Under the pieces are notes generated by a model. That model had not been told where the DNA came from. It did no database searches and worked only from the letters and a program-made list of their open reading frames with translations. Both the position numbers and the translations under genes were made by a program. From NCBI GenBank assembly GCA_041483195.1, contig JBGPFC010000016.1:1-64000 (forward strand): a stretch of DNA of 64,000 nt. Reading direction: 5' to 3'. The stretch comes from Candidatus Eiseniibacteriota bacterium (GTDB taxonomy: Bacteria > Eisenbacteria > RBG-16-71-46). Position 1 is the stretch's first letter. Every line of letters begins with the position of its first letter. Below, piece after piece: positions 5,692 through 24,336 of this stretch.

Positions 5692-6993
5692 TCACTCGAT
5701 GCGCTCGATCACCAGCGGCGGGGCGGGGATCGCGACGTCCGCGATCCGGAAGCAGCCCGCCGCACGCGCGATGACCCCGGGATTCGGCGCGGCGAGATGA
5801 AGCCGCGCGAGCGCATCGCCACGCGTGATCCGCGCGCCGAGGCGGCGCTCGATGACGAGCCCGACGCGCGGATCGATCGCGTCCTCCTTCGCGCGGCGTC
5901 CGCCGCCGATCGCGACCACCAGCTCGCCGAGGCCGTAGGTGTCGGCGGCCACGAGCCATCCGTCTCGATCGGCGAGCACGTCCGCGACGTGGGGCGCGCT
6001 CGGGAGACCGTCTTCGCGCTCGACGCTGCGCGGGTCGCCCCCCTGCGCTTCGACCATTGCGAGAAATCGCTCCCACGCCGTGCCGCGTTCGAGCGCGCGT
6101 TCCGCGAGCCTCCGGCCCGCCGCGAGGTCCGCTTCGGCCCCGGCGAGCACCAGCATGGTGGCCGCGAGCTCGAGCGTGAGCTCGCGCACGTCGGAGGGCC
6201 CCCGGCCGCGCAGCACGTCGGCGGATTCGCGCACTTCGAGCGTGTTCCCCGCCGTCCGGCCGAGCGGCTGGCTCATGTCGGTGATGAGCGCGGCGGCCCG
6301 CGCCCCCAGGGACCCGGAGGTGGCCACCAGGCGCCGGGCCAGCGAGCGCGCGGCGTCCGGCGTCTTCATGAACGCGCCGCTCCCGCACTTCACGTCGTAG
6401 GCGATGGCCTTCGCGCCCTCCGCGATCTTCTTGCTGACGATGCTCGCGACGATGAACGGCTCGTACTCCACCGTGGAGGTCACGTCGCGGAGCGCGTACA
6501 GCTTACCGTCGGCCGGGCAGAGGTCGGGGCCCTGTCCCACCATGACGACGCCCAGCCGGTCGAGCTGCGAGCGCATCGCCTCGGGCGTGAGCCTCGTGCG
6601 GAATCCGGGGATCGCCTCGAGCTTGTCGAGCGTGCCGCCGGTGTGGCCCAGGCCGCGGCCCGAGACCATCGGCACCAGGACGCCGCAGGCCGCGACCAGC
6701 GGCGCGAGGATCAACGAGACCTTGTCCCCGACGCCCCCTGTCGAGTGCTTGTCCGCGGTGGGGCGGCCCAGGTCGCTCCAGTCGAAAGCGCGGCCGGATT
6801 CGAGCGACGCCCGCGTGAGCGCGTCGGTCTCCGCGGCATCGAGGCCGCGAAGGAATGCCGCCATCAGCCACGCGCTGGCCTGGTAGTCGGGAACATCGCC
6901 GCGCGTGTAGGCCGCGATGAACGCCCGGAGCGCGTCGGGGCGATGGGAGCGGCCGTCGCGCTTCTCCCGGATGAGCTCGCGCGGATCGAGCAC
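5692..6993 (-). CDS. pdp: Pyrimidine-nucleoside/thymidine phosphorylase
   Basis: IREKRDG, DYQASAWLMA, DKHSTGGVGDK, SGRGLGHTGGTLDKLE, SIVSKKIAEG; GTG start just after the deoC stop. Confidence 0.93.
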   Translation of the reverse strand: MLDPRELIREKRDGRSHRPDALRAFIAAYTRGDVPDYQASAWLMAAFLRGLDAAETDALTRASLESGRAFDWSDLGRPTADKHSTGGVGDKVSLILAPLVAACGVLVPMVSGRGLGHTGGTLDKLEAIPGFRTRLTPEAMRSQLDRLGVVMVGQGPDLCPADGKLYALRDVTSTVEYEPFIVASIVSKKIAEGAKAIAYDVKCGSGAFMKTPDAARSLARRLVATSGSLGARAAALITDMSQPLGRTAGNTLEVRESADVLRGRGPSDVRELTLELAATMLVLAGAEADLAAGRRLAERALERGTAWERFLAMVEAQGGDPRSVEREDGLPSAPHVADVLADRDGWLVAADTYGLGELVVAIGGGRRAKEDAIDPRVGLVIERRLGARITRGDALARLHLAAPNPGVIARAAGCFRIADVAIPAPPLVIERIE

Positions 6994-6998
6994 CGGCC

Positions 6999-7949
6999 TC
7001 AGTAGCCTTTCTTCCCGGCGGCCTCGCCGCGCACGATCTTGATGCCGGCGGAGGCTCCGATGCGCGTCGCGCCGGCCGCGACCATGGCCTCGACGTCTTC
7101 CTTGGTGCGCACGCCGCCCGAAGCCTTGACGCCCATTTCCGGCCCCACCGTCTCGCGCATGAGCTCGATGTCCTCGACCGTCGCGCCGCCGCCGCCGAAC
7201 CCGGTCGATGTCTTCACGAAATCCGCGCCGGCGGCCTTGGCGAGCGAGCATCCCATGATCTTCTCGTCACGCGTGAGCATCGCCGTCTCGAGGATGACCT
7301 TGACCACGGTGTCCTTTCCCGAGGCCTGCACCACGCCGTGGATGTCCTGCTCGACCAGCGCGTAGTCCTTGGACTTGAGCGCGCCGATGTTGATCACCAT
7401 GTCCACTTCCTCGGCGCCCTGCTCGACGGCGCGCCGCGTCTCGAACGCCTTGACGTCCGGCATGTGCGTGCCGAACGGAAACCCGATGACGGTGCAGACC
7501 TTGACCCCGCTCCCGCGCAGCAGATCGCGGCAGAGCGGCACCCAGCTCGGATTCACGCACACCGACGCGAAGCAGAACTGCGCGGCCTCGCGGCACAACT
7601 GCTCGATGTCGCCCCGCACCGCATCGGGCTTGAGCAGCGTGTGATCGATGAGCGAGGCGAGGCCGTCGGATGCCGGGCAGTAGCCCATGGTGGTCACGAC
7701 GCGCGAGGCGCCGGCGGCGTGGAGCGCGCGAGTTTCCTCCGGGTCGCGCGAGCCCGAGACGCTGAACATCTTGAGCCGCTGGGCGGTCTCGGCGTCGTGC
7801 GCGATCGGCGGTGCCGGCCGCGAGGCGCCCGGCTCGGCCACCCCCTGCGGGATGCGTTCCGCGACGGCCGGCGGTCCGGTGGCGGCCCCCAGGTGCTCCA
7901 TCACCTTGCGCGTGATCGCATCGACCAGCTCGTCGCGCTCGCGGCTCAT
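6999..7949 (-). CDS. deoC: Deoxyribose-phosphate aldolase with a ~96-aa N-terminal extension
   Basis: [61 protein letters not shown] upstream of an ATG that overlaps the cdd stop. Confidence 0.95.
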
Positions 7950-8407
7950 CGTGCCTTCCTCCCCGGATACTTGAAGGGCTGCTGCAGGAGCCGCGCGAGC
8001 TTCGCCCGCGCGATGCGGCCGCGCGGGTCGCGCCAGTACACGACCAGGCCGGGCGCGAACTCGTGCAGCACCTGGCGGCACGCCCCGCATGGCGAGGCGC
8101 CGCCGTCGCGTCCCGCGGTCACGGCGACCGCGACGAAATCGCGCTCGCCTTCGCCGATCGCCTTCCAGATCGCGTTCCGCTCGGCGCAGATCGAGAGCCC
8201 GAACGACGCGTTCTCGACGTTGCAGCCGTGGATGACGCGCCCCTCCCGGGTGAGCAGCGCCGCACCCACCATGAAGCGTGAATAGGGCGCGTACGCGTGC
8301 GTGCGCGCGATCTCGGCCTCGGCCAGCAGCCGCGCGGGCGAGAATGCCGTTCGCGGCGCGCCCCGCGGAAGGGTGATGCCGCGAGGCCCGCCGCGGCGCG
8401 CGCTCAC
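7946..8407 (-). CDS. cdd: Cytidine deaminase
   Basis: [23 protein letters not shown] and PCGACRQ zinc motifs; GTG start overlaps the deoB stop (GTGA). Confidence 0.93.
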
Positions 8408-9570
8408 GTCCGCATCTCGCGCAGGAAGCTGCGCCCGGCGACCGGCCCCGGGAGCCCGAACAGCTCGGCCAGGGTCGCGGCAACGTCCGCGAAGGTGTCG
8501 CGCGTTCCGAGGTCCACGCCCGCCTTCACGCGCGGCCCCGCGACCAGCAGCGGCGTGTACTCGCGCGTGTGGTCGGTGCCGGGCGTGGTCGGATCGTTGC
8601 CGTGGTCCGCCGTGATCAGGCACATCTCGTCGCTCCTCAGGTGGGCCAGAATTTCCTCGAGGCGCTGGTCGAACTGCTCGAGCGCCCGCGCGAAGCCGAT
8701 GGGATCGTTGCGATGGCCGTACTGCTGGTCGAAATCCACGAGGTTCGCGAACACCAGCCCTTCCCCGCGCGACCGCGCCAGCTCGACCAGCACCGCCTCG
8801 CCCTCCGCGTTGCTCTTGGTGTGAATGGCCTCGCTCACCCCGCGCCCCGCGAACAGATCGTCCACCTTGCCCACCGCGACGACGCGCGACCCGCGCTCGA
8901 GCATGCGGTCGAGCAGCGTGCCGTCGGGCGGCGCGAGCGAGAAGTCGCGCCGGTTCGCCGTGCGCCGGTAGTCTCCGTCGCCCCCGAGGAAGGGCCGCGC
9001 GATGACGCGTCCCACCGCGTGCTCGCCCTGCAGGAGCTCGCGGGCGACGCGACACGCCGCGTACAGCTCATCGAGCGGGACCGTGCCCTCATGAGCCGCG
9101 ACCTGGAACACGCTGTCGGCCGAAGTGTACACGATGAACCGCCGCGAACGCTGGTGCTCCGCCCCGAAGCGCGCGATCACATCGGTACCGGAGCCCACGA
9201 CGTTCGCCATCCAGCCGCGCCCCACGCGCTCGCCCCACCGGTCGAGCAACTCCTGCGGGAACCCGTTCGGATAGGTCGGAAACGGCCGCTCGACCACGAC
9301 GCCGGCGAGCTCCCAATGGCCGGTGGTGCTGTCCTTGCCCTTCGAGCGCTCCGCCAGCCGCCCGCGCGCGCCGCGCGGGCCCGCCACGGCGCGCACGCCG
9401 GGCAGCGCGAGCAGGCATCCGAGCCCGAGCGATTGGAGGCACGGCAGCTTGAGGCCCGCGACCGCCTGAGCGACGTGCAGCAGCGTGTGACTGCCGCGAT
9501 CGCCGTACTCCGCCGCGTCGGGCAGCTCGCCGATGCCGACGCCGTCGAGCACGATGAGAAAGGCGCGCAT
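8404..9570 (-). CDS. deoB: Phosphopentomutase
   Basis: [60 protein letters not shown]. Confidence 0.96.
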
Positions 9571-15444: not shown

Positions 15445-15521
15445 TGGCGGGGTTGACGGGACTCGAACCCGCGACCTCCTGCGTGACAGGCAGGCGTTCT
15501 AACCAACTGAACTACAACCCC
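15445..15521 (-). tRNA. tRNA-Asp (GTC)
   Basis: 77 nt, GGGGTTGTAGTTCAGTTGGTTAGAACG...; anticodon arm CCTGC-CTGTCAC-GCAGG; GGTTCGAGTCC T-loop; encoded CCA. Confidence 0.98.
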
Positions 15522-15572: not shown

Positions 15573-15602
15573 ACAATAGACGTGCCCCTTCGCGAGTGTC
15601 AA
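15573..15602 (-). promoter_or_regulatory. Sigma70 promoter of tRNA-Asp, overlapping the thioesterase stop codon
   Basis: TTGACA (15602-15597) - 18 nt - TATTGT (15578-15573). Confidence 0.6.
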
Positions 15603-16024
15603 ACGAGGAAGGGCGAAAGCGCCTCGCGGAGGGCTTCGGGGACCGGGGCGGCGACCAGCTTCCCCCCCTCGCGGCGCATGCACGCGACTTCCTGCGTGCC
15701 GCGCGCCACCAGTTCGTCGCCGCCGCCGCGTCTCCTCCAGTACTCGAACTCCAGCCCGAGACGGTTCTGGGTCAGGCTCTCGAGCCTCATCCGCACGACG
15801 ACTTCGTCGAATGGCGCGAGTTCGGCGAGGTACTCGCACCCGCAGCGCGTCGTGACGAGCGCGAACCCGTCGGCGAAGTCCCGAAACACCGACGGGGCAT
15901 GATCCCGCAGAAACAGCTCGCGACAGCGCCCCTGCCAGCGGAGATGGTTCACGTAGTAGACATTGCCCACCAGATTGGTGTCTTCGAACCCCACCACGTG
16001 CCGGTACTCGTAGGCGCGCCTCAT
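15599..16024 (-). CDS. Enediyne-type hotdog-fold thioesterase (SgcE10/DynE7/CalE7-like)
   Basis: YEYRHVVGFEDTNLVGNVYYVNHLRWQGRCRELFL closely follows the enediyne TE signature; ATGA overlap with the PKS stop. Confidence 0.92.
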   Translation of the reverse strand: MRRAYEYRHVVGFEDTNLVGNVYYVNHLRWQGRCRELFLRDHAPSVFRDFADGFALVTTRCGCEYLAELAPFDEVVVRMRLESLTQNRLGLEFEYWRRRGGGDELVARGTQEVACMRREGGKLVAAPVPEALREALSPFLV

Positions 16025-19000
16025 GAGGGGGCGGCGCAGAGCACCGCGAGCGCCATCGGACCCGGCGAGCCGCGCGTGGCCGAGATCAGCGTGACCACCG
16101 CGAGCCGCCCGGACGCGAGCACGACCCAGCCGTCGGGTTCGGGCGCAACCAGCGTCAGGGGCGCGCCGGCGGGGACGCCCGCCTTTCGAAGCGCTTCGCC
16201 GGCGGACCAGACGCGCGTCGCGGCGCTCGAGAGGCCCTCGCCCGTCTCCCGCGCCAGGCTCTGCGCGAGGATGTAACGCTCCGGGGCCAGCAGATCCCTC
16301 CAGATCTCGGGCGCTCGCTCCCGCACCGCCTCGAGATCGCAGCCGACGGGTGCGTCCCCCCCGACCGCGAGCGTCAGCTCGCCGGCGTGCGCAAGCGAGA
16401 TCGCGGTCCCGTCCACCTCGGGCCGGCCATCCGGGCGATGACGTACCCGCGCCTCCCGGCCGAGGAGCCTCGATGCCGCGCACGCGCCCCGCGATTCGCG
16501 CGCGTCCTCGCGACCGCGTTCCATGACCACCCCGACGCGGGCCCCCGGCAGCAGCTCGCTCACGCGGCGCTCCACGTACGGCGCGAGGAGCATCTCCGGC
16601 CATGCTGCGCTCCTCGCCTGGGGCGCGACGCGCCGCAGCGTGAGCCCTTCCCAGCGCTCGAGAACGGCGCCCCCGCTCCCGATGAGGTCGAGGTCGTAAA
16701 CGAGGGTCTGCGCCGTCTCCGCGCGCTGGCGGGCGCGCACCCGGACGCCCTCGGTCGCGCTCAGCGCGAACGGCACGATCCGCTCGACGGAAACCGGCAA
16801 CACCACGGCGTGCGGAATGCAGGCTTGCACCGCGTGCATCGCCGCGTCGCGGGCGGCGGGATCGCCGAGCACCAGCTCCGCCGGCAGGTACCGGCCGAAC
16901 CACGCCGTCGCGCCGTCCGGAGAGATGTCGGCGATGCAGGACGTCGCCCGCAGCTCGGCGTATGCACGCAGCCGCCTGAAGCGTCCACGCTGAAACAGGA
17001 TCTCGCCGTACAGCTCCCGCGCCGGATCGAGGGCGGGAGACGCTCCACGCGCGTCGGGCGCGGCGGCCGTCTCCGCGCCGGCCTCGCGCTCGGCGGGGGC
17101 GCCGAAGATGCACGCCGCTCGGAAGTGGTCGGCCTGGAATCCGCTCGTCGAGCAGCGGAGCGCCACGTCGATGCGCCCCGGCCCGCGCGCGAGCGCGAGC
17201 AGGCGCACGCTCGTGCTCTCGCCGGCGGCGACCACCACCGGGCGTTCGAAGCGCACGTCCTCGAAGCGCGGCGGGGAATCCTGGTTCGCGAGCGCCATGG
17301 CCGCCTGCGCCATGGCCTCGAGCCCCATGACCGCCGGGAGCAGCCGCTCGCCCTGAAACACGTGATCCTCGAGATAGGGATCGGTATCGGCCGACAACTC
17401 GGCCTCGACGATCAGCTCGACTCCGGGCACGTGCACGAGCGGGCGTTCGAGGAATCGCAGCAGCGGCAGCTCGCCGTCCCGCATGCGCAGGGTCGGCGGG
17501 GAGCCGAACCGTCCGCTCACGACGATCGCGGTCGCGGGCAGCGGGCGCTCGAGCAGCTCGCGGAGCATCGCGATCCCCTGATCCGGGGTGATCGCGGTCA
17601 CGCCTTCGCCGGCGAGCGCGTCGATGCGCCCGAGCCGCTCGCCCATCCCGACCCCCGACCAGACCGACCATTCCACGACGAGCGCGCGGCAGTGCGGATG
17701 CGAGTCGCGCCACGCGCCGACCAGGCGCGCGAGCCATTCGTTCGCGAGCGCGTAGTCGGCCTCGCCGCGCATGCCCGTGCGCGCGATGATCGAGCCGAAC
17801 GCGACGAGCATGCGCAGCCTCGAGGGATCGAGCGCCGCGAGCACGTTGCGCGCCCCCTCCACCTTGGGCGCCAGCGTCTCGCGAAACGCATCGACATCGA
17901 GCGACCCGACCAGGCGCGGCCGATTGATCCCGGCGCCGTGCAGCAGCGCGGTGATTCCCCCGAGCGCTGCCTCGATCGCGCGCACCGCTGCGGCGACCGC
18001 TTCGGCGTCGGTCACGTCGGCCATCTCGTAACGCGCGCGCACCCCGGCGGCCGCCATGCGCTCCAGGTTGCGCGACAGCTCCGCGTCGGCCTCGGGATGC
18101 GATCGCCCGATCAGCGCGAGCCGCGCGCCGCTCTCGCGCGCGAGCGCGAGCGCGCACTCGGCGGCGATACCCTTACCGCCCCCCGTGACGAGCAGCACGT
18201 CGTCCGGGCCGAGCGGAGCTTCGTGCCGCGCGGCATCCGGGGGCAGGAGCGACAGCACGGGTTCCCATCGCCGGCCATCCGCATCGTATCGGCAATCGCT
18301 GAAGTCCGGGCCGCTCACCGCCTCGTGCGCCGCCCAGCTCGCGGCGCGCGCGTCGCCCTCCGGCACCTCGACGATCGACGTCGCGATCCACGGCGCCTCG
18401 AGATGGAGCGACCGCGCGAAAGACGCCGAGTCGGGGCCGCGCTGAACCAGCGCGAAGCGACCCGCCGGATGCTGCGCGAGCGCGCGGCGCGCGGCCTCGA
18501 GCAGCAGCGGGAGGTGACGCTCGCCGGGCGATGCGGGAAGACAGACCGCGACGCCGCTCCCGCCCGCGGATCGCAGCGCTTCATCGAGCGCCGGGCCGAG
18601 CGCGTCGCCGGGTTCCGCGAACACGGTCCATGCCCCGGGCGGCCGCACGCCGTCGGATGGCCGCGGCGGACGCTCGACGTGGTCGAGCGTGAACGCCCGC
18701 ACCCAGGTGTCGATCCCGGACGGGGCGAGATCGCGCCGGGGCGCGGACGACGCTGGCCCCACGCGTTTCAGTTCCTCCAGCGCGAGCGCGAGCTCCGCGA
18801 CCGTCGCGCCCGCGTACGACGTGAGATCGCGCGATGGCGCGAGCTCGAGACGCCGGAGCGCATCGGCGACCAGCTGACCCACGGTGATCGAATTGAGGTG
18901 GAGATCGACGAGCAGCCGGCTTTCGTCGCGGACCGCGTCGGCGGGAAGCTCGGCCCGCGCGGCGACCAGCTCTCTCACGAGCGCGAGGGTGTCGATCTCC

Positions 19001-21819
19001 TCGCTCTCGGCGCGCACCGGCCGTGAATGCGCGGGCACGGACGCGAGCTCCTCGGCGTCCCGCGCGATTCCGCGGCCGCGGGTTGGCGCCGGCGGTGCGT
19101 CCCTCGCCGGCGCGAGCTCGCAGGGGTTGACGAAGAACCGGGGCCGACGCTCGGGATCGATGGGGCGGGCGAAACGGCCATCGAACAACGCCGCGTGACG
19201 AAGCGGGGCGCCCAGCGCATGCGCCGCGCCGACCACGGCGAGAAGCGGGGCGATCGACCACGACCCCGCGTCGAGCGAGAGTGCCGGCACCTTCCCGATC
19301 TCGCCCGCGAGCCCGGAGAGCACCGTGCCGGGGCCAGCCTCGATCCAGAGATCGAGACCGTCCGCCGCGGAGGCCACGGCCTCGTGGAACCGCACCGGAG
19401 CGGTCACCTGCCTGACCAGCAACGCACGCGTGTCGGCGCGGCGCTCGAGGCGCGCGCCGGTCACCGTGGAGTGCACAGCGCGCGTGAGCGGCGCGAGCCT
19501 CACGCGCGCGAGCTCAGCATCGAGCGCCGGAGCGGCCCGCCCGACCAATGGCGAATGGAACGCGTGTGAAACGGAGAGCCTCGTGGCCGTGAGGCCGAGC
19601 GCGCGCGCCCGTGCCACGACCGTCTCGACCGCGAGGGCCTCTCCCGAGATCACGGTCTGGCGGGGTGCGTTGAGACCGGCGATCGTGACCGGCGCGCCGC
19701 CCAGCAGCGACGTCACCTCGTCGCGTCCCGCGCGAATCGACGCCATCGCCCCGGTCGGGCTCCCGAGGTCGCGCATCGCGCCGCCCCGCGCACGCGCGAG
19801 CGCGAGCAGCGCCTCCTCGTCGACCACCCCCGCCCAGTGGAGCGCGGTCAGCTCGCCCAGACTGTGGCCCACCGCGACCTCCGCCTCGATGCCGAGCGCA
19901 TCGAGCAATCGCAGGGCGGCGAGCGATGCGGTGACGATCGCGGGCTGGGCGATCTCGGTCGCGACCGCGTTGGCCCCCGCGGGGAGCGGGAACTTCGCAT
20001 AGAGGGCGCGCACCGATGGGAAGCGCAAGCGCAGCCTGCCGCCGTCGGGACGCGCGGGCGAGCCCTGTCCCGGAAACAGGAATCCGATTCGCGGCGCGCC
20101 CGCTCGGGCGCCGAGGAACACCCCGTCCGCCTCGGCGAGCCGCTCACGCACCCCCTCGCGGAGCCATGCGCGCAGGGTCTCGAGCCTTCGCGCGAGTTCC
20201 GCGGGGGTCGCGGCCACGATCCCCGCGCGCAGCGCGGAGGGAGCGAGCGATCGCCCGAGCCAGGCCGCGAGATCACCCAGCTCGGCGCGCGCCAGCGACG
20301 GCGCCAGCGCCGCGAGCCGATCGACATCGCGTCCGAGGGCCGCGGCATCCGCCGCGCCGAGCAGGAACAGCTCGGCATCCTGCGCAGAAGCCGCGAGCGA
20401 GCGCTCGTGCGGCGTCAGGGTCTGGCGGCGCTCGCCGTCCGCGGCTTCGAGCGCGAGGTGCGTGTTGATGCCGCCGAATCCCATGCTCGAAACGCCGGCG
20501 CGCCGCGGCGCGGCTTCGGGCCAGGCCTCCGCCTCGCGGAGCACGCGCAGCGCCGGCGACTCCCCCGTGAGCTCGACGTGCGGCTCGTCGCAGCCGGTGG
20601 TGGGCGGCAACACCTGATGATGAAGCACGAGCGCGGCCTTGATGATGCCGGCCGCGCCGGCCGCCGCCTTGGTGTGCCCGAGGTTGGCCTTGATCGAGCC
20701 CAGCGCGGCCGGCGAAGACGCCGAAGCCTCGCGGCGCGCACGCGAGAGCGCGGCGAGCTCGGTGGCGTCGCCAACGCTCGTTCCCGTGCCATGGCCTTCG
20801 AAGTAGCCGACGGTCTCGATGCCGAAGCCCGCGCGCCGGTAGGCCCGGCGGATCGCGAGCAGCTGGCCTCCCACCTCAGGGCGGGTCAGTCCGCCGCTTC
20901 CATCCGACGAGATCCCCCAGCCTCGGATCGCCGCGATCACGCGTCGTCCCTGAGCGAGCGCATCCTCCTCGCGCATGAGCACCAGCACGCCGCATCCCTC
21001 GCCCGGCCAGAAGCCGGCCGAGCGCCGGTCGTACACCCGCATCTCGACCGGAGCGAGCGCCGAGGTCATCGCGAAGCCGACCAGCTCGAACGGATCGAGG
21101 CTCAGATCCACGCCGCCGGCGATCGCCACGTCGAGATCGCGCGCGACCAGCGCCGAGCACGACTGAGAGATCGCGAGCAGCGAAGATGCGCACGCGCCGT
21201 CCACCGTGAAGCCGCCGCCCCCGAGATCGAAGTGGTTGCAGATGCGGCCGGCGATGGTGTTCGAGAGACCGCCCGCGAGGGTCTCCTCGCCCACCTCGGG
21301 AAACGGCGCCTTGTATCGCTCCTCGAGCCGCTCGATGAGCGCGCGCCGCCTCGCGGGTTCGAGCGTCAGCTCGTCGAGCTCGGCCTCGAGCACCCGGCGC
21401 ACGTATGGCCAGCGCAATCGCATGGCGTTCGCGCGGGAGAACTCTCCGGTCAAGGTGTTGCCGAGCAGCACACCGGTGGTCTCGCGTGGCAGCCCATTCC
21501 CCCCGCCGAAGCCCGCGTCCTCGAGCGCGAGCGCCGCGATGTCGAGCGCGAGCCAGTGCGCGAGGTCGGCCGACCGAAACGTGCTGCCCGCCACCCGGTA
21601 CGCCACGCGGTCGAACTCCCAGTCGGTGATGAGTGCCGCCTCGGCCGCGTAGGTACGGTCCCGCGCGCCGCGCACCGGCGACCAGTAGTCCTCGAGGCGC
21701 ATGCGCTCCCTCGGCATGCGCCGGAACGCGCGCCGCTGCGCGAGCACGTTCTCCCAGAGCTCGGCGGGCGTTCGAGCGTCGGGGTAGCGGCAGGCCATGC
21801 CCACGATGGCGATCGACAT
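16021..21819 (-). CDS. Iterative type I enediyne-type polyketide synthase (PKSE), KS-AT-ACP-KR-DH-PPTase, 1932 aa
   Basis: KS: IAIVGMACRYP, LAGGLSNTIAGR, DGACASS, EGHGTGT, NLGHTKAAAG. AT: GHSLG, HAFHS (malonyl type). Internal ACP: DLHLNSITV. KR: GGGKGIAAE, GEADYALAN. DH: HVFQGERLLP. C-terminal PPTase: VGCDLE...WSAGEALRK. Confidence 0.95.
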   Translation of the reverse strand: MSIAIVGMACRYPDARTPAELWENVLAQRRAFRRMPRERMRLEDYWSPVRGARDRTYAAEAALITDWEFDRVAYRVAGSTFRSADLAHWLALDIAALALEDAGFGGGNGLPRETTGVLLGNTLTGEFSRANAMRLRWPYVRRVLEAELDELTLEPARRRALIERLEERYKAPFPEVGEETLAGGLSNTIAGRICNHFDLGGGGFTVDGACASSLLAISQSCSALVARDLDVAIAGGVDLSLDPFELVGFAMTSALAPVEMRVYDRRSAGFWPGEGCGVLVLMREEDALAQGRRVIAAIRGWGISSDGSGGLTRPEVGGQLLAIRRAYRRAGFGIETVGYFEGHGTGTSVGDATELAALSRARREASASSPAALGSIKANLGHTKAAAGAAGIIKAALVLHHQVLPPTTGCDEPHVELTGESPALRVLREAEAWPEAAPRRAGVSSMGFGGINTHLALEAADGERRQTLTPHERSLAASAQDAELFLLGAADAAALGRDVDRLAALAPSLARAELGDLAAWLGRSLAPSALRAGIVAATPAELARRLETLRAWLREGVRERLAEADGVFLGARAGAPRIGFLFPGQGSPARPDGGRLRLRFPSVRALYAKFPLPAGANAVATEIAQPAIVTASLAALRLLDALGIEAEVAVGHSLGELTALHWAGVVDEEALLALARARGGAMRDLGSPTGAMASIRAGRDEVTSLLGGAPVTIAGLNAPRQTVISGEALAVETVVARARALGLTATRLSVSHAFHSPLVGRAAPALDAELARVRLAPLTRAVHSTVTGARLERRADTRALLVRQVTAPVRFHEAVASAADGLDLWIEAGPGTVLSGLAGEIGKVPALSLDAGSWSIAPLLAVVGAAHALGAPLRHAALFDGRFARPIDPERRPRFFVNPCELAPARDAPPAPTRGRGIARDAEELASVPAHSRPVRAESEEIDTLALVRELVAARAELPADAVRDESRLLVDLHLNSITVGQLVADALRRLELAPSRDLTSYAGATVAELALALEELKRVGPASSAPRRDLAPSGIDTWVRAFTLDHVERPPRPSDGVRPPGAWTVFAEPGDALGPALDEALRSAGGSGVAVCLPASPGERHLPLLLEAARRALAQHPAGRFALVQRGPDSASFARSLHLEAPWIATSIVEVPEGDARAASWAAHEAVSGPDFSDCRYDADGRRWEPVLSLLPPDAARHEAPLGPDDVLLVTGGGKGIAAECALALARESGARLALIGRSHPEADAELSRNLERMAAAGVRARYEMADVTDAEAVAAAVRAIEAALGGITALLHGAGINRPRLVGSLDVDAFRETLAPKVEGARNVLAALDPSRLRMLVAFGSIIARTGMRGEADYALANEWLARLVGAWRDSHPHCRALVVEWSVWSGVGMGERLGRIDALAGEGVTAITPDQGIAMLRELLERPLPATAIVVSGRFGSPPTLRMRDGELPLLRFLERPLVHVPGVELIVEAELSADTDPYLEDHVFQGERLLPAVMGLEAMAQAAMALANQDSPPRFEDVRFERPVVVAAGESTSVRLLALARGPGRIDVALRCSTSGFQADHFRAACIFGAPAEREAGAETAAAPDARGASPALDPARELYGEILFQRGRFRRLRAYAELRATSCIADISPDGATAWFGRYLPAELVLGDPAARDAAMHAVQACIPHAVVLPVSVERIVPFALSATEGVRVRARQRAETAQTLVYDLDLIGSGGAVLERWEGLTLRRVAPQARSAAWPEMLLAPYVERRVSELLPGARVGVVMERGREDARESRGACAASRLLGREARVRHRPDGRPEVDGTAISLAHAGELTLAVGGDAPVGCDLEAVRERAPEIWRDLLAPERYILAQSLARETGEGLSSAATRVWSAGEALRKAGVPAGAPLTLVAPEPDGWVVLASGRLAVVTLISATRGSPGPMALAVLCAAPS

Positions 21820-22871
21820 CACGCGCTCCCCTCGCGCTCGAGGCGTGAGCGCACTCGCGCGCGCCAGGATTCGTACGCCGGCTCCGCGCCGTCGCGCGGC
21901 TCGGGCGCCAGCGCGTCGTCGCACACGCGCGCGGCATCGCTGGCCGTGAGTCCGCACAGCACATCGCACGCGAACGCGGTGTGCGCTGCGGGATTACCCG
22001 CCCGCTCGCGCGCCTTGGCCGCGAAAGCGGCGCCCTGCGCGAGATGATCGCGATGCGTTCCGCTCAGGTCGCGCAGCGCCTCGAGCGCGCCGCGCTCCGC
22101 GCCGCCCGCGTAGGCCGCCGCGAGCCCCGCGCCGCTCCAGAGGTCGGCGTGGCGGGCGGCATCGAGCCCGGCGATCGCGGCCGCGATCCGTCCGGGCTCT
22201 CCCCCCTCGCCGAACCAGAGGCTGCGTCCGAGCCCCTGATCGTACGCGCGCCGCGCGTAGCCCAAGATGTCGCGCGGAACGAGCCCGCGCTTCACGCGCC
22301 GCACGCGCGCGAAATATCCGTCGTGGAATCCGCGCCCGTCGAGGACCAGCCAGCGCAGCAGCGGGTCGAACCCGGCGATTCGCCTCGCGAGCGCATGCGG
22401 GAGCCGCGCGGTCGCCCAGCCCGCGCCGACGTGCAGCATGTACGCGTGCGGTGCCCCGTCGCCGCGCGCGAAGCGAGCCCATCGACCGCGATCGAACGGC
22501 GAGATCGCGTCGAGCAGCGCGAGCGCCATGCCCGCCCCTTCGAACGCGAAGCCGCGGATCTCGAGGGGTTCGTCGTCGAGCCGCGCGCCGAGCGCCGGGG
22601 CACCGCCCCGCTCGAGCGCCGCGTGGTACCCCCGGACGAACGCGAGGCCGATCGATTCGAGCCGCTCGCGCATCGCGGCCGCCGGCACATCGAACCCGCG
22701 CCGCGCGACCGATGTCTCGCCGGACGGGATTCCGAAGAGCGCGATGCGCACCCGAGCCGCTGGCGAGAGGGCGCGCGGCCGCCCGACCGCCTGGACGATC
22801 GGGGCGGCAGGCACCATGGCGATCGGGAGAGGGCCTGAGTCCCGGGGGGTCTTTCGGCCTGCGGCGCGCAT
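21819..22871 (-). CDS. Enediyne cassette protein UnbL / E3 (DUF1702 family)
   Basis: RGFAFEGAGMAL, YMLHVGAGWA, WLVLDGRGFHDGYF, DQGLGRSLWF, DLWSGAGLAAAYAGG, QGAAFAAKAR, YESWR; TGATG coupling to PKSE. Start at ATG 22871 (AGGAG RBS) or 22817. Confidence 0.88.
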   Translation of the reverse strand: MRAAGRKTPRDSGPLPIAMVPAAPIVQAVGRPRALSPAARVRIALFGIPSGETSVARRGFDVPAAAMRERLESIGLAFVRGYHAALERGGAPALGARLDDEPLEIRGFAFEGAGMALALLDAISPFDRGRWARFARGDGAPHAYMLHVGAGWATARLPHALARRIAGFDPLLRWLVLDGRGFHDGYFARVRRVKRGLVPRDILGYARRAYDQGLGRSLWFGEGGEPGRIAAAIAGLDAARHADLWSGAGLAAAYAGGAERGALEALRDLSGTHRDHLAQGAAFAAKARERAGNPAAHTAFACDVLCGLTASDAARVCDDALAPEPRDGAEPAYESWRARVRSRLEREGSA

Positions 22872-22989: not shown

Positions 22990-24336
22990 CTAGTACATGT
23001 GCCGCAGCTCGACGCCCGTGTAGTAGTGCTCGAGGATCTCGGCCGCGTTCTTTCCCGTGCGCGCCATGCCGAGCGCCCCGGTCTGGCAGAGGCCGACGCC
23101 GTGACCCGACCCCGCCCCGCTCGCCACGATCGCGAGCGTGCGCCCCGTCGCCGGATCGCGCCGCACGTCCACCTTGAACAGGTTCGAGCGGAGGATCGCC
23201 CCCGCGTTGCCGGCGCGACGCAACACCTGCCGCAGCACGTAGGCGGGGACGATGATCGTGCCGGTGCTGGTCGTCACCTCGAGGCGCCAGACGCGTCCCG
23301 ATCTCGAGCGCGACGCGACGCGCACGTCGAACAGCGTTCCCACGCCCGTGGGGGGCAGCTCGACGCCGTACTGCGGCGCGAAGTGCGCGAGATTGGAGCC
23401 GAACTCGGCGGCGGTCCATTCTTCGCGCCAGCGATACTGGGGCGATGCCGCGCAATAATCCTCTGAGCCGTCGCGATCGCGACGGCTCACGAGGTAGCGC
23501 AGTCCGTCGGTGGGCCAGGCCTCCCACGCCTCGGCGGTGATGCCGCCGCAGGTCGAGCAGTAGTTCGCGCGAATCGGCCAGCCGTCCGCGAGCGGAACGT
23601 CCCCCCGCGTGCTCTCGACGCAACGCGTCGCGAGCGGGCGCTCGGTCTCGACCGGACCGTAGACCTGGTCCTCGACCGTTCCGTAGAGATCGAAGCCCTC
23701 CTCGCCGCGGCGCCCGCGATAGAAGAGGGTGTAGCCGCGCGCCGCGATCGCCTGCGCGCGGCCCGCCTCGATGAGGGCGTCGGAGAGCGCGCCGATCTCC
23801 CCGGGCACGACGCCGAGCAGGTAGGTCTCGAGCGGCAAACGGTCCACCACGGTCAGCCTGCCGCGCGGATTCACGAATATCTTGATGCTGCCGCGCCACG
23901 TCTTGCCGCGCCACGCCACGACCGCCTCCGGTGAGAGTCTGCGGTCGCGCACCCAGAGCGTGTCGCCGGCGCGCAGCGCGGAGCCGAGGTTCCCGCGTCC
24001 CCTCGGCCCGAGGTTGTCGAAGGTGGCTTCGCCGTTCTTCGCCGTGACGCGGATCGTGCCCAGCGAGCGCTGGGCGGATCCATCGGGCGTGACGAGCATC
24101 GCGTCCGATCCCACGGTCGTGAGCTCGACGTCGTCGAGATCCCACGCCAGCCCCACGTCCATCGCGGGCTCGGCGGCCAGCTCGAAGGCCGCGGGCGCGG
24201 GGGGTGGCAGCGGCGCGGGCGCGCCGGGCCGTGCCACGGGTGGCGCCGGTGGCGAGACCGGTCGCGGCAGGGGCGCACAGGAGGCGGCGAGCGCGACCAG
24301 CGCGGCGGCGGCGAGTCGTGTGCCCGGGCCGCGCAC
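22990..24336 (-). CDS. SpoIID/LytB-domain lipoprotein (putative lytic transglycosylase)
   Basis: Lipobox-like LAASC; LETYLLGVVPGE, AQAIAAR, DQVY, STCGG, GSGHGVGLCQTGA, EILEHYY. Confidence 0.9.
   Translation of the reverse strand: MRGPGTRLAAAALVALAASCAPLPRPVSPPAPPVARPGAPAPLPPPAPAAFELAAEPAMDVGLAWDLDDVELTTVGSDAMLVTPDGSAQRSLGTIRVTAKNGEATFDNLGPRGRGNLGSALRAGDTLWVRDRRLSPEAVVAWRGKTWRGSIKIFVNPRGRLTVVDRLPLETYLLGVVPGEIGALSDALIEAGRAQAIAARGYTLFYRGRRGEEGFDLYGTVEDQVYGPVETERPLATRCVESTRGDVPLADGWPIRANYCSTCGGITAEAWEAWPTDGLRYLVSRRDRDGSEDYCAASPQYRWREEWTAAEFGSNLAHFAPQYGVELPPTGVGTLFDVRVASRSRSGRVWRLEVTTSTGTIIVPAYVLRQVLRRAGNAGAILRSNLFKVDVRRDPATGRTLAIVASGAGSGHGVGLCQTGALGMARTGKNAAEILEHYYTGVELRHMY

Follow-up and report, generated by a model that had tools for sequence, protein, structure and literature searches.

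An enediyne-type polyketide synthase core in a Candidatus Eiseniibacteriota genome and its likely non-canonical partner genes

The window analysed here, comprising the first 64,000 nucleotides of contig JBGPFC010000016.1 of a Candidatus Eiseniibacteriota bacterium (assembly GCA_041483195.1), carries on its minus strand a cassette of three co-directional, overlapping genes, recognised from their open reading frames (ORFs) and translations, which encode an E3/UnbL-type protein, an enediyne-type polyketide synthase (PKSE) and a thioesterase (TE). With a probability of roughly 55%, judged from sequence comparisons, this cassette represents a functional and selected enediyne-type polyketide synthase (PKS) core belonging to a split, non-canonical variant of the five-gene enediyne cassette (E3, E4, E5, PKSE and the TE, E10), the likely partners being divergent E4- and E5-like genes (E4' and E5') and a gene between them ('mid') on a second contig, C26. 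As end product, a modified polyene or polyyne hydrocarbon or an envelope lipid is more likely than a classical enediyne chromophore, because no tailoring, apoprotein or self-resistance genes were seen in the 64-kb window or at 4-36 kb of C26, although no whole-genome search for them was made. The source genome (G000; 4.17 Mb, 93 contigs, 96.8% complete, with the cassette on contig C16) was compared with a relatives set of 41 genomes, in which the unpublished G026 was counted among the negatives, and with a phylum sample of 201 genomes for co-occurrence; G003 is its sister species and G005 a genome of the same family without the cassette.

The three-gene cassette and its insertion site

The cassette genes, the domains of the PKS and the two flanks of the insertion site are the following:

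21819..22871, minus strand: E3/UnbL-type protein (DUF1702), 350 aa, ATG at 22871; Pfam PF08012, E 2e-104
16021..21819, minus strand: PKSE-type iterative type I PKS, 1932 aa; Pfam domains, collinear with the PKSE of the Streptomyces globisporus locus
15599..16024, minus strand: hotdog thioesterase of the CalE7/SgcE10/DynE7 type, 141 aa; PDB sequence search, 4HBT_2
20590..21816, minus strand: ketosynthase (KS) domain, residues 2-410; PF00109 E 5.7e-47, PF02801 E 2.9e-33
19123..20379, minus strand: acyltransferase (AT) domain and linker, residues 481-899; PF00698 E 3.2e-29, DynE8 AT structures 4amo/4amn E 5.2e-57
18730..19032, minus strand: acyl carrier protein (ACP) region, residues 930-1030; PP-binding E 0.0021, 18.7 bits (cut-off 20.8)
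17656..18195, minus strand: ketoreductase (KR) domain, residues 1209-1388; PF08659 E 3.6e-31
16609..17424, minus strand: dehydratase (DH) domain, residues 1466-1737; PF21089 E 2.2e-13, PF14765 E 2.7e-17
16024..16602, minus strand: C-terminal phosphopantetheinyl transferase (PPTase)-like domain, residues 1740-1932; ACPS PF01648 E 1.1e-4, 22.7 bits (cut-off 25)
15445..15521, minus strand: tRNA-Asp(GTC), one flank of the insertion site; ARAGORN
22990..24336, minus strand: SpoIID/LytB-domain gene, the other flank; TIGR02669 E 1.2e-49

The gene boundaries bear out the translational coupling through TGATG and ATGA overlaps that the original prediction had claimed for the three genes. The E3 stop and the PKS start overlap by 1 nt (...GCG TGATG TCG), and the PKS stop overlaps the TE start in ...TCATGAGG (ATGA), with the ATG at 16024, not 16027, as the TE start codon. 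Moreover, the junctions E3-SpoIID, PKS-E3 and TE-PKS are spanned by short contigs of other sediment samples, and those bridging E3 and SpoIID show no differences.

The KS, AT, KR and DH domains of the PKS exceeded the Pfam cut-offs, while the ACP and PPTase segments, scanned alone, gave weak, sub-cut-off matches at the positions expected for a PKSE. The predicted order KS-AT-ACP-KR-DH-PPTase, by which a PKSE is recognised, is thus found on a single polypeptide of ~1900 aa, and residues 3-1929 are collinear with the PKSE of the Streptomyces globisporus locus at 51% identity. The catalytic motifs had been described as intact from the window sequence, and their residues, along with some others, proved invariant in an alignment of the window PKS with 11 full-length homologues: C210, H343 and H382 in the KS, GHSLG (G651-H652-S653-L654-G655) and HAFHS (H752-S756) in the AT, D972, L973, H974 and S977 in the ACP, Y1356 and N1360 in the KR, H1486 in the DH, and D1828, E1875 and K1879 in the PPTase region. 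We take the roles of these residues to be those generally known for PKS motifs. The PfaA model TIGR02813 was also among the best partial NCBIfam matches of the KS region (E 7.1e-154), with a score of 513.9 against a family cut-off of 1010.

The TE aligned end to end with the solved structures of CalE7 (E 1.9e-48), the 'ACP-polyene thioesterase' 4i4j (1.2e-44) and DynE7 (3.8e-41), and matched the hotdog family 4HBT_2 in Pfam (E 1.8e-13). This kinship, together with the position of its gene beside the PKSE, identifies it as an enediyne TE of the SgcE10/DynE7 type, as had been proposed. E3, the only DUF1702 match in a search of the genome, covers positions 4-318 of the 319 of the PF08012 profile, which assigns it to the E3/UnbL family, and shares 40-66% identity with 40 E3 proteins of PKSE loci. 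Its AlphaFold2 model is an all-helical repeat (pLDDT 88.7), and its invariant residues are mostly glycines and aromatics in repeated motifs. A Foldseek comparison of the model with the PDB gave no match at E <= 0.001, no sequence relative was found in the PDB, and a kinship to MA3/MIF4G helical repeats, put forward by a wide VIA-align comparison, was too weak to assign fold or function (best Z 6.5, 98 residues). E3 is probably a cytosolic protein without a recognisable enzyme fold, whose role would be to bind or present a polyene rather than to catalyse a reaction.

Comparison with the two related genomes revealed the history of the site. G005 holds the empty arrangement, with AnmK, SpoIID, ~120 nt, tRNA-Asp, AdoMet decarboxylase, agmatinase and RlmI in succession, and relative to it the cassette is an insertion. 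G003 carries the cassette at the same site, with tRNA-Asp after the TE and a PKS 73% identical to that of G000. Between G000 and G003, dN/dS was 0.30 for E3, 0.26 for the PKS, 0.19 for the TE and 0.23 for E4', compared with 0.07-0.32 for three flanking genes; the corresponding dS values, which are rough owing to the simple Nei-Gojobori count and a strong bias in GC content at third codon positions, lay at 0.78-0.84 in the cassette and at 0.57-0.75 in its flanks. The common site and the purifying dN/dS argue that the common ancestor of both species already had the cassette and that selection has maintained it since. The cassette is located 5' of the tRNA, its GC content is 0.73-0.75 as against 0.71-0.73 in most flanking windows, and among the signs of a genomic island no integrase was seen.

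Family scans and ARAGORN also substantiated the predicted neighbourhood of tRNA-Asp and peptidoglycan-recycling genes. On the side of the tRNA, genes for AdoMet decarboxylase, agmatinase, an RlmI-like methyltransferase and alanine racemase follow, and on the side of E3 those for SpoIID/LytB, AnmK, MurQ, Fpg and an ABC-2 transporter; the remaining 19 scanned ORFs of the window belong to penicillin-binding protein, complex I, molybdenum cofactor and similar housekeeping families, with one ORF outside any family. Neither UnbV nor UnbU, nor an oxygenase, an apoprotein or a regulator, was seen in family scans of the window ORFs, in agreement with what had been stated for the cassette and its surroundings. 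In G003, a TMEM260-like (PMT/ArnT-type) gene lies between SpoIID and E3 (L016:about 6450-8561) and is not orthologous to the copy on C26 of G000; since the two match over 77 residues only, at 45%, a TMEM260-like glycosyltransferase was rejected as a common component. Furthermore, a strong sigma-70-like site on the minus strand at 15573-15602 (TTGACA, 18 nt spacer, TATTGT) shares bases with the TE stop codon and points at tRNA-Asp. A promoter scan gave two consensus sites only, each close to the tRNA, and no such site upstream of E3; among the 24 sequencing runs listed for the stretch, none is an RNA run.

The operon on the second contig and its link to the cassette

The description of the cassette as stripped-down and without E4/E5 holds for the locus but not for the genome. 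A genome search returned a single UnbV_ASPIC match, on C26, where an operon at about 11.6-16.3 kb comprises E4', mid and E5'. E4' is an FG-GAP/UnbV_ASPIC protein with an ORF of 904 aa, from whose likely start a protein of ~663 aa with a hydrophobic N-terminus would result, and E5' (306 aa) is a polytopic membrane protein that matches RnfD/NqrB weakly. Cassette E4 and E5 proteins of two reference loci, one from Pyrinomonadaceae and the other that of S. globisporus, show the same Pfam signatures as the C26 proteins, E4' being 31% identical to cassette E4 (E 5e-60) and E5' 32% identical to cassette E5 (E 1e-31). The intervening mid (343 aa, one N-terminal membrane helix) has no Pfam or NCBIfam family and no similarity to E3. 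Its assignment as tetratricopeptide repeat (TPR)-like comes solely from fused forms in the loci L061, L080 and L114, which represent three other lineages, and these E4'-TPR fusions suggest that E4' has in mid a TPR-like partner domain. The fusions measure 860-994 aa (L061:3027-6011, L080:2248-4974, L114:7482-10064), and an MMPL-family gene is adjacent to them in L061 and L080 and one gene away in L114.

Several lines of evidence connect the C26 operon with the cassette. Among the 41 relatives, a full-length PKSE occurs in G000 and G003 only, and the same two genomes alone hold a close E4' orthologue (83% identity; the G003 contig ends right after E4'), which was absent from searches of the PKSE-less congeners G001 and G002. 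In the phylum sample, DUF1702 exceeded its cut-off in five of the 201 genomes (G000, G003, G142, G043 and G066), and E4' at >= 50% identity was likewise found in five (G000, G003, G142, G066 and G146), four of which carry DUF1702; G043 has a canonical contiguous E3-E4-E5-PKSE-TE cassette in place of E4'. Finally, both modules are neighbours at several loci, in a relative of the same family as well as in other phyla. In L070, a Candidatus Eisenbacteria record that apparently equals the G142 locus (the pair was counted once), E5'<-TPR<-E4' is divergent from E3->PKSE->TE at a distance of ~250 nt, the identities of the three C26-type genes being 75%, 61% and 66%; one cluster of G066 holds an E4'-TPR fusion, MMPL, E3, PKSE and TE; and the PKSE genes of L061 (Pirellulaceae) and L080 have an E4'-TPR fusion together with an MMPL gene next to them. 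A metagenome scan with E5' as query, which yielded 41 loci, 14 of them with enough flank to judge the neighbours, showed the order E4'-mid-E5' to be retained as far as each contig extends. E3 is a neighbour of E4' in L142 and L151, as is the PKSE in L151. On a further contig, a PKS 44.5% identical to the window PKSE over residues 3-1055 lies 6 kb downstream of E4'-mid-E5' (L147:16653-19985); E3 was not detected on that contig.

C26 additionally carries, outside the window, an AhpD-like 'peroxidase-related' gene (TIGR01926; G000:C26:29929-30642, L106:13929-14642) that is split by a single in-frame TGA, the codon taking the second position of a C-P-F-TGA motif. L070 and L023 share this TGA, a conserved GC hairpin starts 13 nt downstream of it, and G000 has a tRNA-Sec at C9:87187-87284, from which a selenoprotein is the probable product. 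A gene of this kind comes after the TE in L070 and borders E5' in several metagenome contigs: the AhpD-like pair X-Y is located there in L070, L142, L148 and L149, and Y alone in L141. A second RnfD-like protein of G000, 34% identical to E5', is encoded beside a DUF2330 gene (G000:C57:331-2518, L105). RnfD-like matches in 24 of the 41 relatives including G000 (28-37% identity, one short fragment 56%) probably represent this C57-type paralogue.

The following scheme would accommodate these genes. The self-priming PKSE would assemble a conjugated polyene on the ACP that it carries, for release by the CalE7-type TE. As far as the consulted sections of PMC9992847 describe, every PKSE/TE pair tested, cognate or mismatched, yields 1,3,5,7,9,11,13-pentadecaheptaene. 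E3, translationally coupled to the PKSE, probably handles or presents this polyene, on which E4' (signal peptide, beta-propeller), the membrane-anchored TPR-like protein and the RnfD-like E5' could then act at the membrane or in the periplasm, and the AhpD-like probable selenoprotein may belong to the system.

Family distribution and competing readings

A protein search scored 8000 candidates, of which 6388 matched the PKS at E <= 1e-50, and the best 120 homologues, from Gemmataceae, Pyrinomonadaceae, Tautonia, one cyanobacterium, Herpetosiphonaceae and others, are nearly all full-length with the same domain set and 54-72% identity. Metagenomes are very rich in homologues of this range, several of them bearing the JGI name 'enediyne polyketide synthase'. 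From a scan of species genomes, we studied the best 80 PKSE loci out of 571 confirmed relatives, which extend from Verrucomicrobiota to Streptomyces globisporus. A KS-AT tree of 79 rows, made up of G000, G003 and 77 of the 80 loci (the remaining three were omitted because the coverage of their best match was too small) and built without an outgroup such as PUFA or modular KS and without the named SgcE, CalE8 and DynE8 among its rows, separates 41 actinomycete rows from 38 non-actinobacterial ones, each group forming a clade with support 100. The PKSs of G000 and G003 form their own branch inside the non-actinobacterial clade, while the S. globisporus locus sits in the actinomycete clade, sister to it. 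Enediyne-type KS domains outside Actinobacteria have been published earlier with no product assigned, and no enediyne is reported from the non-actinobacterial PKSE clade in the text consulted of that survey (PMC10308959).

Of these 80 loci, 71 gave an E3 match and 68 a TE match, and queries with cassette E4 and E5 matched in 67 loci each. In our own reading of the locus table, 48 of the 80 have the contiguous order E3-E4-E5-PKSE. The direct contact of E3 and PKSE, correctly predicted for the window (1-nt overlap), is not unusual, since 15 of the 80 loci share the arrangement, among them seven actinomycete loci with canonical E4/E5 a few kb away, downstream of the TE. As for the other abutting loci, L051 has E5 further along the same contig, two are cut by contig ends, E4' adjoins in L061 and L070, and L019, L025 and L030 have no E4 or E5 within the locus. 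L025 comes from a metagenome-assembled genome titled Bifidobacteriaceae, a doubtful bin label given that its PKSE groups with the Pedosphaera locus among Verrucomicrobiota rows; a 2816-aa BNR/HYR protein precedes its PKSE, E3-PKSE is present and no TE match was obtained.

Several observations weigh against a split five-gene variant with partners on C26. In the E4 tree, from which L070 was omitted because of its split gene, 62 cassette E4 proteins (support 100) stand apart from five E4' (support 98) and one homologue from a PKSE-less genome; in the E5 tree, 64 cassette E5 proteins (support 100) are separated from E5' of C26 and L070 together with six Eisenbacteria RnfD-like paralogues, among them the C57 copy of G000, and E5' is about as distant from cassette E5 as from the RnfD-like paralogues of PKSE-less relatives. 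By these trees, G000 has neither a canonical E4/UnbV nor a canonical E5/UnbU. Moreover, 12 of the 14 evaluable metagenomic E4'-TPR-E5' operons have no E3 or PKSE alongside, and in G146 (85% complete, 450 contigs), which holds E4' at 70% identity, no DUF1702 or PKSE C-terminus was found. Distant E5-like/E4-like pairs also occur in PKSE-less genomes: in G016, of the same family (G016:C1:2346982-2349696, L110), such genes (33% and 40% identity) stand back to back in a 991-aa open frame and may be fused, so that the pair exists there without a PKSE. In L070 (L070:6837-8695, G142:C85:74827-76775), E4' consists of two frames that overlap and contains a single in-frame TGA, which may reflect an assembly error, a pseudogene or recoding. 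Finally, the C16-C26 link depends on metagenomic binning, although G003 nonetheless holds both modules, and the co-occurring genomes are kin that represent three or four lineages rather than five independent events.

The strongest competitor, which we nevertheless judge unlikely, is an autonomous minimal pathway in which E3, PKSE and TE alone produce a heptaene-type polyene pigment or lipid, which E3 might modify or carry, and the C26 operon is unrelated. Such a pathway would suit a compact, coupled unit inserted alone into a housekeeping locus, as well as the mostly separate metagenomic operons and the position of E4' and E5' outside the canonical clades. Furthermore, the cassette-E5 query was negative in four of the five other genomes in which E3 abuts the PKSE (G202, G203, G204 and G206), G203 is also without an E4' match at E <= 1e-40, and PKSE plus TE alone suffice for pentadecaheptaene in E. 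coli according to the part of PMC9992847 used here. However, four of the five DUF1702 genomes of the phylum sample carry E4' and the fifth canonical E4/E5, leaving none without an E4-type gene; E4' stands beside E3-PKSE in L070, G066, L061, L080, L142 and L151, and E4'-type genes are present on other contigs of G202 and G204. Of the two options offered by the original prediction, a split pathway in a non-actinomycete lineage thus fits better than an undescribed minimal one.

Far less probable is a classical enediyne producer whose full warhead and tailoring genes are merely dispersed in the genome. PKSE, TE and E3 are indeed full-length family members, and genes could be missed in a genome of 93 contigs at 96.8% completeness. 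On the other hand, the sole UnbV_ASPIC protein is E4' and not canonical, the E5 tree leaves the genome without a canonical E5, and no set of oxygenase, apoprotein, glycosylation and resistance genes was seen in the window or the C26 neighbourhood, with no whole-genome search made for tailoring or resistance genes; the PKSE, in addition, belongs to the non-actinobacterial clade, for which the survey text reports no enediyne. The original prediction would have been refuted by E4/E5 and a tailoring cluster elsewhere in the genome; E4/E5-like genes did turn up there, albeit outside the canonical clades, and a tailoring cluster was not found in the regions scanned. Least probable of all is a five-gene cassette that has lost E4/E5 and persists as a silent or decaying remnant, as also considered in the original prediction: the ancestor probably had E4/E5, given that 29 of the 38 non-actinobacterial rows fall in the tree's catch-all class, mostly contiguous five-gene loci, and given the 48 contiguous loci among the 80, yet the three ORFs are intact in two species at dS ~0.8, their dN/dS of 0.19-0.30 resembles that of the housekeeping neighbours, the motif residues are invariant, and the cassette, for which G005 shows the empty site, already existed in the common ancestor with G003.

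Returning to the split variant, the wider distribution of its parts gives a hint to the product. MMPL-type exporters occur in 13 of the 80 loci, none of them an actinomycete record; 11 of the 13 are in the non-actinobacterial clade, and the other two (L027 and L089) are Pyrinomonadaceae records. The recurrence of such exporters suggests that the product exported in these phyla is lipid-like, G000 itself being without a close MMPL orthologue. An MMPL-like gene on C3 of G000 was rejected as part of its system at only 28-35% identity; its position relative to a conserved neighbour is the same as in L070. Tentatively, and with somewhat less than an even chance, a second type of PKSE system might exist in Gram-negative-type phyla (Eisenbacteria, Planctomycetota, Acidobacteriota and Verrucomicrobiota), in which E4', with a fused or partnered TPR, replaces canonical E4/E5, Eisenbacteria add E5' and the AhpD-like selenoprotein, and an MMPL-type lipid exporter often adjoins. 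Its heptaene would become an envelope-associated polyene or polyyne lipid and not a DNA-cleaving enediyne, and its modules could be scattered over the chromosome.

Relation to known systems

In the portion consulted of PMC11069151, from 2024, what E3, E4 and E5 do is still described as uncertain, and literature searches on Eisenbacteria polyketides and on enediynes with MMPL or the phylum names returned nothing on the present variant. PKSE homologues outside actinomycetes were already published, the split E4'/TPR/E5' arrangement appears to be new, and the product is probably not an enediyne. Among the locus and its relatives, three natural combinations are available: E3-PKSE-TE with divergent E4'/TPR/E5', E3-PKSE-TE in genomes where no E5 homologue was found, and canonical five-gene cassettes from within the phylum. 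A role in the cell envelope is suggested by the recurrent MMPL exporters and by partners in the periplasm or membrane; if true, it would change the reading of metagenome 'enediyne' matches.

With the actinomycete E3/E4/E5/E/E10 cassette of C-1027, calicheamicin, dynemicin and tiancimycin, the G000 system shares the PKSE domain order at 49-52% identity, the TE (51-58% identity to actinomycete TEs), E3 (DUF1702, 37-50%) and, going by the consulted sections of PMC9992847, the expected first product, a C15 heptaene. Unlike that cassette, it has no canonical E4/E5 but divergent E4'/E5' with a TPR-like partner at another locus, no tailoring, apoprotein or resistance genes were seen around it, its host is an uncultured sediment bacterium of Gram-negative type, and its PKSE belongs, in the KS-AT tree, to a sister clade to all actinomycete PKSEs. 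In the non-actinobacterial enediyne KS/PKSE clade (mSystems 2023, PMC10308959), to which the KS-AT tree assigns the window PKSE, no product is given for any member in the text consulted; that survey classified KS domains, and cassette variants are not described in the same text. Unlike most of the 80 loci, G000 has E3-E-E10 alone in a housekeeping locus and E4'/TPR/E5' elsewhere. The PUFA synthase PfaA resembles the window PKS in the KS region (TIGR02813) and differs from it in domain order and in the C-terminal PPTase. RerA/RerB of Rhodococcus erythropolis PR4, described in the consulted part of Chem Commun 2024 (PMC11563203) as an iterative PKS that produces extended conjugated polyenes and is not part of an enediyne cluster, is set beside the G000 system by this description. 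Unlike RerA/RerB as presented there, the G000 system keeps E3 and a discrete CalE7-type TE and its PKS falls among the PKSE loci of the KS-AT tree, and RerA/RerB may serve as a model for its polyene end product.

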